A stretch of DNA of 64,000 bases, taken from positions 160,001-224,000 of the forward strand of contig CAVRFW010000009.1 of assembly GCA_963720565.1 (NCBI GenBank). The letters run 5' to 3'. This DNA comes from Candidatus Bathyarchaeota archaeon. Its GTDB lineage: Archaea > Thermoproteota > Bathyarchaeia > Bathyarchaeales > Bathycorpusculaceae. The position numbers are program-made. Shown here in pieces: positions 42,001-45,000 of this stretch; within the stretch, counting starts at the first letter, position 1; every line of letters begins with the position of its first letter.

Positions 42001-45000
42001 ATCTTGAATGCCTAAACCACGCAAATGTTCATTTTGCGGAACTGACTTTCCAGCGGGCACAGGGATGATGTTCGTAAAAAACGACGGAGCTCTTTTGTGG
42101 TATTGCTCAGGCAAGTGTAAGAAGAGTTCATTGGGCTTTAAAAGAGACGCACGCAAGCTCAAATGGACAAAATACTTCGGCAAAGAAGAAAAAGGGAAAG
42201 CCTAAATCTGCAATCAAGACTTACCATAAGTCCATTCCGCACATTTCTTCAGTATTGCATTTACCAAAGGCAGAACGCCCTAGTCTTTCCTATTTCTCAG
42301 CCATTTTTGCGTTTGCTAGTAAAGACTATTACGTCTCTGGTTTAGTCTTTTGGAAAATAGTTTTGGTAGCGGGGACTAGATTTGAACTAGTGATCTCTGG
42401 GTCTCTCCGAGCAGCATCTAAGTGCTCTTATGAGCCCAGCGGGTTAATCCTGGCTACCCCACCCCGCTGAATTCGCACCCAAAGCGTTTTTGAATCCTTT
42501 TTATTTACTACCCATTGTCGAATATTAATAGTTTCTTTTTCACTTCTCGGTAAAGCATTTTAGTATCAATCATTAACTCTCTAAGAATGGTGCAGCATTG
42601 AATGGACAAGCCATATTTGCACGAAATATCCAAACCTGACCTCGAGAATCCAGTTTTCGTCCAAGGCTTACCCGGTTTCGGCAATGTCGGAAGGATAGCA
42701 GCGCATCTATTGATTAAATTCTGCGACGCCAAACCTTTTGCTGAGCTGTACTCGCCTTATTTCCCAGACTATGTATCCATAAGCTCAAATGGAATATGCC
42801 ACCTGCCAAAGTACGAGTTCTACTCTGCCCAGATTGAAAAAAACAATCTTGTCATTATGACTGGAGAAACCCAGCCTTCATTTGATGATGTCCTGGCACA
42901 CTACAACATCTGCGGAGACATTTTGGATTTTGCCCAAAAAATAGGTTGCGGCTTCATAGTAACTATGGGCGGAGTTCCAATAACAGAAGACAAAACACAG
43001 GTGTATGTAGCAGCTACATCGCCGAGTCTCGCAACCGAATTTATGGAGAAAGGGGCAGTAATATATAGCAAAGGCAGAATAGTAGGTGGAACTGGACTTA
43101 CTCTGGCACTGGCAAAAGAGCGAAAGCTTGAGGGCATTTGTTTGCTTGGGGCCACAACAGGTTTCAAGGCTGATCGCGGTGCAGGATTCATGGTTTTCAA
43201 GTTCTTAATGAAGACCTTAGGAAAAGAGATAAAAGAAGGGTTATAAGAAAAACAGTGCACCTAGATAACAAGAGAGTTGTGTTAAGATGAATGAGAATAG
43301 CAGTATTGGCGGGTTCGATTTGGACTCCAAATTCTGGAGAATCATAATGGTCATCGTGGCGGTTTTTCTAATATTTATCGGTCCAACATACGTATCCTAC
43401 CTGCTGAGCGATGTTCTTAGAATAGACTATGTTGCCTCATTGGTTGTCGGACTCGTCCTTTTCGCATTGGGCTTAGCACTGATAGTGTTTCTGACTCGAA
43501 AGAAAATCCTTACTTAATTTTTGCCTCAGATACCCCAGGGTGCATCATCACAATCAGCTTTTTGGATTCTTCATCGGCGTACTCTAGGAACCAGAAACAG
43601 TTTTATTAACCATTCTTCGGCCTAACCTAGAAAGGCATATAAAATATTTCTGCAGATATACTTGTTATGCAGCCAGGAAACAGGAAACGACTGGATGAAA
43701 TCACAAACAAGAATCAGGAAACGGCAAAAAGAACAACAATCATACTGGAAAAAGAAGAAAGAGAATACATAGACTCGCTTATAAGAGAAGGAAAAGAACC
43801 AGGGATTAAACCGCTCATCAGCAAAATGCTCAATATTCATAGAAACCTCACGATCTATGATTGGCGTTTTCCAGGAGAGTACTATTGCGGAATAAGCCGC
43901 ATAGCCATCGTAAACGTGGAACTACTGAACATTCTCACTCAACAAATCCCAAAGGAGAAATGGCGTGAAATCGGGAGAAAAATGGGCAGCGCCCTCAAAG
44001 TTTCACTCGAAACAACATTAGGACTTCAAACAACGCAACGCGAGAACTGGCAAAACGTGTTTGACAGATTAAAAGTTCAAGGCTTCGGGGACTTCTTTCT
44101 TAAAGACAAGTATCTCCTTCTAAAAACGCCATTTATTTCTGAGGTGGAAATTTGGCAAGGAATCTTAGAAAACCTTTTCGAGATAGAATTGGACATAAAA
44201 AACTCTGTGCCGCCAATGGTTTTTCAGATAAAAAACAAAGTCATTTCATAGATAACACAAATAGTTCCTGGGCTGGTGCAGAAAATGTTAAGATGGAATA
44301 GTTTATTAGAGAGACATCAGCTTAAGGTGCTTTCCAGTGGTAAATGATGAGGGATTGTGTTCATCAAAGGCGATTGCATTCATCTCAAGCAGAGGCAATC
44401 CATATAACTCGTTTCTAAACGAAAAGAAATTTAGCAAAATAAGCCTAGTCCCTCATGAGATGTGGCGTTTTTTTAACCAAGAATTTTGTTTAGTGTTAAG
44501 GTCAAATGTTAATACAAACATAAGAACAAGGTGCAAAAAATGGAAAAAGTGAAGTTTGCAATACCTGCCGGCTCATTAGCCAAAGCGACTTTTGAAATAC
44601 TTCAGCGTTCCGGATACAAAGTGTCAGGACAGGAACGTACATATCGTCCTACGATAAACGACCCCAAAATCGAACTGAAAATCCTGCGACCTCAAGAAAT
44701 TCCCGTTTTCATCAGCGAAGGATTACAAGACGTAGGCATAACAGGTCAAGATTGGATTCGAGAAACCGGTGCTGATGTAGAAGTGCTTCAGAATTTGGAA
44801 TACGGAAAAATTAAGCTTATCGTAGCTGTTCCAAAAAGCTTCAAAACCAACTCGATCACTGACCTGATGGAACAATTATGGAGCAGAAGCAAGAATTTTA
44901 GAGTTTCAACCGAATACTTGAACATCGCCGCAGAATACATAAGGAATAATCCAGCTTACCGAAAGAGCTTCGGTGAATCAGAACCGTTGATTGTGACACC

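Follow-up and report, generated by a model that had tools for sequence, protein, structure and literature searches.

Leaders in front of his, ilvB and trpE genes of Bathyarchaeia and related archaea as probable +1 frameshift sensors of amino acid supply

The leader upstream of hisG

The window analyzed here is a stretch of 64,000 nucleotides from Candidatus Bathyarchaeota archaeon (assembly GCA_963720565.1, contig CAVRFW010000009.1, positions 160,001 to 224,000), and all window features given below lie on its plus strand. It contains a his operon whose first gene, hisG (44540-45538; TIGR00070), is followed by hisD (TIGR00069) and then by hisC, B, H, A, F and I, these last having been named by eye. 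TFIIB-like and L7Ae-like genes were likewise read by eye among the neighbors in the window. Upstream of hisG lies a short leader ORF (44347-44418) of 23 codons and a TAA stop, which begins ATG AGG GAT TGT GTT CAT and carries His at codon 6. Its start at 44347 is 193 nt upstream of the hisG ATG (44540), and an alternative in-frame ATG is present at 44344. The sequence GTGGT at 44337-44341 provides a ribosome-binding site (RBS) for the ORF, and a GTG or GAG block occupies the same place across loci. A TATA-like box at 44302-44309 is the putative promoter element of the his operon, its TTTAT column being kept at the same distance in 30 aligned his leaders. The RBS of hisG itself, AAGGTG (44528-44533), is apparent from the sequence and from the aligned his leaders.

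Two copies of a small cassette can be recognized in this region, each in a different reading frame. The first comprises an internal block resembling a Shine-Dalgarno (SD) sequence (44349-44355), which pairs with the 3′ end of the genome's own 16S rRNA (this end reads GATCACCTCCT) and stands one codon 5′ of a putative slip codon, GTT, that is followed by the sensor codon CAT (His1; 44359-44364 for both codons). A +1 slip at this point would lead into a frame (44363-44407) that holds the second cassette (44369-44383), where GGC GAT TGC ATT CAT represents an SD-like block, a spacer codon, the slip codon ATT and a second sensor codon (His2), before closing at TAA 44405-44407. A further slip would lead into the +2 frame (44382-44552), whose 56 open codons cross the spacer to a TGA at 44550-44552 and overlap hisG by 13 nt. 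The spacer also contains a CU-rich stretch (44448-44456) that, in the computed fold, is complementary to the leader start (44347-44355) and might provide an accessory, though not universal, pairing, as well as a U7 tract (44468-44474) that could be a termination signal. Across the his loci T4 runs are common, with one or more in 34 of 46 spacers, a raw count without a control set. In two RNA runs, short contigs of relatives cover parts of the leader, an observation that says nothing on expression.

Cassettes in relatives and their geometry

HisG was matched in 72 of the 121 genomes of the order, and 50 hisG loci were read (30 returned and 20 from strong matches, with the weak short-HisG matches of genus g27 left out). 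The leader cassette is present at 47 of these loci and absent at three (L048-L050). IlvB was matched in 73 of the 121 genomes, and the leader precedes ilvB at 41 of 50 loci read, codon 6 being Leu at 24 of them and Val at 17; all nine loci that lack it belong to one genus. The preliminary description, which reported such leaders before hisG and before the acetolactate synthase gene ilvB (a leader with Leu at codon 6 at C5:207790 on the minus strand), is borne out on both points, the leaders recurring at a rate well beyond chance, and its statement that no Rfam family matches holds as well (0 matches at E ≤ 1).

In all 47 his leaders the first slip and sensor codons read NTT|CAY, NTTCAY being also the rule by which they were detected. 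At 41 of the 47 loci a second His codon lies in the +1 frame exactly 19 nt past His1; it encodes His in 41/41 and is preceded by NTT in 41/41. The block that follows His1 reads G-[D/G/V/A]-[C/R/Y]-[V/L/I/F]-H in the +1 frame, and since it is sensible only in that frame, the repeated unit can be defined as running from a G-rich block through a single spacer codon to a slip codon with the cognate codon behind it. Base 16 past His1 varies freely; it is position 2 of a codon in frame 0, where seven residues result, and position 1 of the NTT codon in the +1 frame. The conserved string 'RRLxS' is the second cassette as it appears in the wrong frame. The six loci with a single cassette come from two families, and two loci of one genus (L009 and L011) show opposite single and double states. 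Frame 0 closes 9-60 nt past His1 at all 47 loci, and at the double loci the +1 frame meets a stop 0-4 codons past His2.

A second branched-chain cassette is found at no fewer than 31 of the 41 ilvB loci, here in frame 0 and always for a residue different from that of the first. The order of Leu and Val/Ile cassettes is swapped between families, and some ilv leaders carry further in-frame branched-chain codons (0-5). In two genomes a Leu cassette is found before a leuA-type gene as well.

These data change the picture of a conserved MRDR-x peptide with a single cognate codon, fixed at codon 6, that was first drawn and read as a single-codon sensing or arrest leader for several operons. What stands is a shared, probably translated leader system that serves several operons, is specific for an amino acid and has the cognate codon at position 6, but some loci have this codon at positions 7-10 instead, and the second His codon (41 of 47 loci) and the second branched-chain cassettes (at least 31 of 41) show that it need not be the only one. 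Arrest by a nascent M-R-D-x-x peptide that stalls the ribosome in a ligand-dependent manner would suit the prevalence of Arg at codon 2 (34) and Asp at codon 3 (37) in the 41 double-cassette his loci. However, Gly replaces Arg in seven of these and G, N or V replaces Asp in four, and G, N, V or Y occurs at position 3 across loci. The third base of codon 5 shows no variation in the his loci, and bases -2 to +1 around His1 (TTCA) are invariant in the 41 double-cassette loci, the same four being the detection rule. Such fixed wobble bases are the opposite of the pattern of an arrest peptide, which would also have to accommodate an out-of-frame cassette 2 and a cognate codon that tolerates positions 7-10, and we consider this explanation extremely improbable. 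The caveat in the preliminary description that a nucleotide-level element might be read in frame proved right, the element being an internal SD and putative slip site coupled to a long open shifted frame.

Pairing with the anti-SD sequence was computed for the 8-nt window that ends 7 nt before the cognate codon, using the anti-SD from the genome, a cut-off of -3 kcal/mol and 430 control genes. All cassettes pair at or below this value (47/47 His1, 41/41 His2, 41/41 ilv and 46/46 trp, compared to 27% of the 430 controls). The result is non-circular for trp and His cassette 2; His cassette 1 and the ilv cassettes were detected by a rule that already demanded G-richness, so that for them it is circular. 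For cassette 1 of the his loci the median is -7.4 kcal/mol, whereas the corresponding position in the 430 controls gives -1.5, and in each of the four cassette sets pairing is strongest at offsets -7/-6 relative to the A site. The internal SD-like sequence lies 3 nt 5′ of the shift codon, as it does in prfB.

The codon in the P site co-varies with that in the A site, with YGG before GTA, NTT, YAC or TTC before CAY or CTC, and NTT before TGG. At +1 it would be expected to re-pair in the His cassettes (NTT|C), in the Trp cassettes (NTT|T) and at the YGG|G of Val, NTT being part of the detection rules for His and Trp. In the ilv leaders, CGG or TGG precedes GTA, and codons ending in C or T precede CTC. 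Re-pairing at +1 is poor at CAC|C, TAC|C and TTC|C, which together make up 19 of the 24 first Leu cassettes, including that of the window genome, and also at the four Ile cassettes; these sites count against the frameshift reading and are its weak point. The A-site codons are CAY, CTY, GTA, ATY or TGG, never the UGA of prfB.

Poorly slippery Leu cassettes could work as sensors by stalling only, with the internal SD clamping the ribosome on the hungry codon, the stall altering folding or termination, and the open frames arising as by-products. An SD-like block followed by a cognate codon fits a pause, and the pairing of the leader start with the CU-rich spacer element seen in the window exceeds a probability of 0.5 at 22 of 46 his loci. 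Nevertheless, the single-sequence fold of the leader is unremarkable (z = -0.62), the pairing of the main-gene RBS is not above that in shuffles (0.42 versus 0.39 for his, 0.44 versus 0.48 for ilv), and a search for a hairpin-U terminator found none. Stalling also leaves unexplained why another His cassette stands in the +1 frame, why the open frame changes between single and double loci and why there are trpE genes that lack a start codon (see below), and we regard it as an unlikely account of the system as a whole.

Open shifted frames and the TrpE reading frame

The frame expected from the cassettes is the one at +1 relative to the last of them, and we scored it as open when it continued to within 35 nt of the gene start. 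The hisG starts used were extrapolated from the alignment and may be a few codons off, and one locus (L029) was dropped for Ns. The expected frame is open at 40 of 40 double-His, 6 of 6 single-His and 41 of 41 ilvB loci (87/87), whereas dinucleotide shuffles predict 7.17, 0.85 and 6.80 open frames, respectively (about 15 of 87 in all), and the remaining two frames, which serve as controls, are open in just 0/87 and 3/87. Related genomes are not independent, so these counts overstate the significance and we claim no p-value. Because the open frame follows the last cassette, the absolute frame that is open differs between single- and double-cassette loci. A single -1 slip was considered as a candidate and is excluded by a +2-frame stop between the cassettes at nine double-His loci; it also misfits the single-cassette loci.

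A second set was obtained with a GTDB-wide pattern in which both His cassettes were fixed and the spacer was left free, yielding at least 119 stretches. Among the 119 listed, 117 precede hisG and two precede a HisS/HisZ-like gene, where the +2 frame is open too. The +1 frame between the cassettes is open in 117/117 listed pattern loci. After removal of 19 duplicates, 98 of the listed loci had not been seen before, and of these the +2 frame is open at 96, the +1 frame at three and frame 0 at none. The two exceptions are L199, which has a spacer duplication, and L222, which has a stop at -41. These leaders come mostly from Bathyarchaeia among the listed matches, with three loci from Nitrosopumilales or Thaumarchaeota. 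A few of the listed loci carry bacterial or Nanoarchaeia labels and may be mis-binned.

The shifted frames end at stops spread from -30 to +41 around the gene start, most commonly at +5 or +10; L170 is a further exception, its +2 frame passing without interruption into hisG. In the ilvB leaders the +1 frame is shut where the leader begins, through the TGA contained in RTG-AGG (41/41), and the shifted frames are mostly without a start codon. A gene for a small protein was also considered and is ruled out, since the peptide of the shifted frame is not conserved and often lacks a start codon, and that of the window +2 frame has no match in NCBIfam.

The his element could also be described as an imperfect direct repeat with 19-nt spacing and high base conservation, as might befit an operator for a DNA- or RNA-binding protein that has no translational role. 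Such an operator would not be expected to contain a variable triplet that in the predicted frame always codes for the amino acid of the operon, or to obey the frame rule at 87 of 87 loci, and the trpE promoters have a separate TGTAC-pair motif (21 of 50). We therefore give this possibility hardly any weight.

The TrpE N-domain was matched in 56 of the 151 genomes of the class, and 50 loci were read, one of which (L139) was placed by eye. An NTT|TGG cassette with Trp at codon 6 and with TrpE in the +1 frame is present at 46 of the 50, so that the lone trpE case known at the outset is confirmed. The P codon is NTT in 46/46, NTT also being part of the detection rule. At 22 of the 46 loci there is no ATG, GTG or TTG in the TrpE frame from the cassette to the Pfam N-domain, and at 15 of these the first start is at least 100 nt inside the domain (by hand count). 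At the remaining 24, TrpE could alternatively begin at a start codon in its own frame. Five loci have a TrpE-frame TAG immediately before the slip codon, which pins the entry point into that frame.

Outside the class, the cassette occurs at 17 of 33 trpE loci read, from eight families, with Trp at codons 6-10. Ammonia oxidizers, a group with cultured members, are included: in an amoA-bearing family (amoA is present in four of four genomes tested) the cassette was found at 19 of 20 further trpE loci, one being cut by the contig end. It is absent from families f42 (10 loci) and f53 (4 loci), and trpE loci without a cassette (f42, L138 and L290) commonly have an in-frame start at much the same position.

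A different possibility is that initiation is independent, with the G-rich block acting as an ordinary RBS, the long frame or TrpE having its own, possibly non-canonical start, and the frame-0 ORF merely competing. A GTG or ATG does lie in the TrpE frame within the cassette at 10 of the 46 class loci, as does a GTG at all 23 cassette-bearing ammonia-oxidizer loci, and in the +2 frame many his loci of family f1 offer a GTG or TTG. However, such starts are not conserved, and none exists in several his and most ilvB shifted frames. Where the TrpE-frame stop abuts the slip codon, the first start lies 54-180 nt into the domain at four of the five loci. Independent initiation would also leave the operon-dependent change of the cognate codon unexplained, and it is in our estimation quite improbable. 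If, instead, TrpE is entered by frameshifting, many trpE genes are annotated with a wrong start.

Within the window genome, a loose scan gave at least 265 noisy candidates, and a scan for the full architecture gave 10 rows, of which only his (two rows) and ilvB are convincing. Pattern scans of the same genome found no cassette near aromatic, thr, lys/arg or pro clusters, and neither the trpE nor the metE family turned up in this assembly, which is 89% complete. A look-alike before its serA has Lys in the sensor position and a +1 frame that closes 35 nt before the gene. A class-wide pattern with other sensor codons returned 37 rows from 29 of the 151 genomes; among 30 loci read, Leu precedes ilvB (4) or leuA-type genes (2), His was found in two, the rest lie inside genes or are uninterpretable, and no new sensed amino acid appeared in these 30. 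In the ammonia-oxidizer family, no cassette was seen by eye at hisG (30/30) or ilvB (25/25).

Proposed mechanism and comparison with known systems

It is highly likely, to judge from the arrangement of the sequences, that these leaders are starvation-triggered programmed +1 frameshift sensors for amino acids, and the short ORFs before the his, branched-chain and trp genes probably do not act as peptides. The geometry, the cognate codons, the frame rule and the missing starts are features of the sequence and the pairing is computed; from them we infer that the leader is translated, that the ribosome pauses and slips, and that slipping depends on charged tRNA. As suggested by the conserved RBS and start, a ribosome would initiate on the short ORF and bring the cognate codon into its A site while codons 2 and 3, a single codon 5′ of the P-site codon, pair by computation with the anti-SD tail of the 16S rRNA. 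We assume here, by analogy with bacteria, that elongating archaeal ribosomes respond to an internal SD. With charged tRNA plentiful, translation would continue in frame 0 and stop 80-170 nt before hisG or ilvB, or soon after the Trp codon, so that the frame-0 leader ORF would be the default product at the window locus under plentiful His. With charged tRNA scarce, the A site would stay empty and the P-site tRNA might slip by one base, from NUU to UUC/UUU or from YGG to GGG. Only slipped ribosomes would then have an open road ahead, the open frames themselves being evident in the sequence.

The outcome would depend on the arrangement of the cassettes. At trpE the new frame would be the enzyme itself, as in prfB. 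At ilvB either of the two same-frame cassettes would give +1, so that two amino acids would be joined by OR logic. Before hisG both staggered His cassettes would have to slip, with the stop 0-4 codons past His2 discarding single slips, an AND logic with a steeper response. A slipped ribosome in the his and ilv leaders would cross the spacer, end near the gene start and switch the gene on, be it through re-initiation, through clearing of the RBS or through transcription that stays coupled beyond the U-rich RNA. According to one study, re-initiation is efficient where genes overlap or lie only a very short distance apart (PMC10666635); given this distance limit and the scatter of the shifted-frame stops, simple re-initiation fits only part of the set. 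Exclusion between the ribosome and FttA figures as a hypothesis only in the accessible portion of another (PMC11616081).

The cassette spans 18 nt, is directly testable and is also present in amoA-bearing ammonia oxidizers. If the proposal is true, it represents a widespread archaeal counterpart of attenuation, elongating archaeal ribosomes use their anti-SD tail as bacterial ones do, and hungry-codon frameshifting has a natural function, a matter left open in the part of a review available to us (PMC5009743). We found no published description of such leaders in a search of the main texts of openly accessible articles, and the supplementary frameshift list of PMC3711429 could hold such genes. 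The leader system is real and widespread, and most likely represents a known mechanism in an undescribed use. It also seems reasonably likely that a modular frameshift cassette replaces attenuation in many Thermoproteota, with a swappable codon setting the amino acid and the arrangement of cassettes setting the logic, and that this is the first natural hungry-codon control of amino acid supply and the first SD-stimulated +1 shift in archaeal cellular genes that we could find.

Ribosome-mediated attenuators such as hisL, trpL, ilvL and leuL sense charged tRNA through runs of cognate codons in a leader ORF. The leaders described here resemble them as ORFs with cognate codons before amino acid operons, but have one conserved His codon in frame 0, or one Trp codon, rather than a codon run, and their output would depend on the reading frame. 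Conserved terminator or antiterminator hairpins were not found by the fold, terminator and RBS-pairing analyses described above. The control of amino acid biosynthesis in archaea is largely unknown beyond TrpY and Tar, according to the accessible text of PMC6737238, which describes both as transcription factors of trp control and thus of a different nature from the leaders. An archaeal frameshift has a precedent in fucA1, which is the one demonstrated cellular case in the available part of a 2021 review, next to a putative viral +1 shift (PMC8211752), but the fucA1 shift is -1.

Several non-archaeal systems also use a frameshift, as far as the portion of PMC5009743 at hand describes them. In ketolide-induced ermCL and in E. 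coli pheL, a frameshift in the leader ORF sends ribosomes over the spacer, and the next gene is turned on. However, the trigger of ermCL is an antibiotic and the slip in pheL is called incidental (PMC5009743), whereas the present leaders have a dedicated, conserved cassette of SD and slip codon in which the cognate codon is swapped from operon to operon. Antizyme, Ty1 and the 'hungry codon' shifts of Gallant share a +1 slip favored by a slow A site, and antizyme is likewise a metabolite sensor; these cases are eukaryotic or experimental, and a natural amino acid operon under such control is not described in that portion of the text (PMC5009743).

The nearest relative is the RF2 gene prfB of bacteria, whose shift combines an SD 3 nt 5′ of the site, a CUU_U slip sequence and a slow A site in the same source (PMC5009743). 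The leaders share with it a short frame-0 ORF, an internal SD at 3 nt and, in the proposed mechanism, an xUU-Y slip at the His and Trp cassettes and a slow A site as trigger (PMC5009743). As in prfB, the functional protein lies in the +1 frame at trpE, whereas hisG and ilvB keep their own RBS and start, and the shifted frame of the his and ilv leaders is a non-conserved spacer rather than a product. The leaders also differ from prfB in being archaeal and in stacking cassettes in series or in parallel. Above all, their A site holds a sense codon of the pathway amino acid instead of UGA, so that the input would be aminoacyl-tRNA and not a release factor. The absence of UGA from the A site means that these leaders are not members of the prfB type, though they would work like one.

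The spacer and upstream flank of the his leader

Downstream of the leader of hisG in the window lies a CU-rich element (44448-44456) that is complementary to the leader start. Across the window and loci L002-L004 the end of this element tracks the leader start codon, reading CAT where the leader starts with ATG and CAA where it starts with TTG. The CAT/CAA change is possibly compensatory for the change of start codon. This complementarity is not universal among his loci. A gene of 194 amino acids (43667-44251), for which an NCBIfam search returned no match, adjoins the his promoter on its upstream side, and in some relatives the leader is preceded by sequence similar to the C-terminal part of this gene. 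Its product is a possible candidate for a regulator.

Unusual loci and look-alikes

At L170 the +2 frame, which would be entered by a second slip, runs stop-free past the second His cassette into hisG, whose product could be a doubly frameshifted fusion. At two other loci (L233 and L236) the double His cassette stands upstream of a HisS/HisZ-like gene, and no stop interrupts the +2 frame before the gene start. This placement suggests that control by the proposed frameshift sensor may extend to tRNA synthetases. At L199, the spacer of the leader contains a tandem duplication of approximately 130 nt that interrupts the open frame; this duplication may be an assembly artefact.

Cassette-like sequences also occur in other settings. 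The genome of the window has a cassette-like start upstream of a serA-like gene (C3:31672, minus strand), where the sensor position is occupied by Lys and the +1 frame closes 35 nt early. In another family, a cassette with His at codon 6 (L332) is located within a long +1-frame ORF.

Promoters and leaders of trpE

Under a strict rule, 21 of the 50 trpE promoters (L102-L151) carry a pair of TGTAC-type motifs immediately 5′ of their TATA box; when judged by eye, more of them do. These pairs resemble the TRP boxes of TrpY. Given this likeness, trpE may be under dual control, by a repressor besides the frameshift sensor. Two trpE loci of the same genus (L132 and L145) have remnant-like leaders without the Trp codon and an ATG further downstream, near the TrpE domain; possibly the sensor has been lost there.

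The ilvB leader of the amoA-bearing family

In the amoA-bearing family, the ilvB loci (L391-L415) have a leader of another type. By eye, most of them show a short ORF that ends in a run of Leu/Val codons followed by a stop, and no frameshift cassette was seen in this leader. Such an arrangement resembles a classical cognate-run leader.
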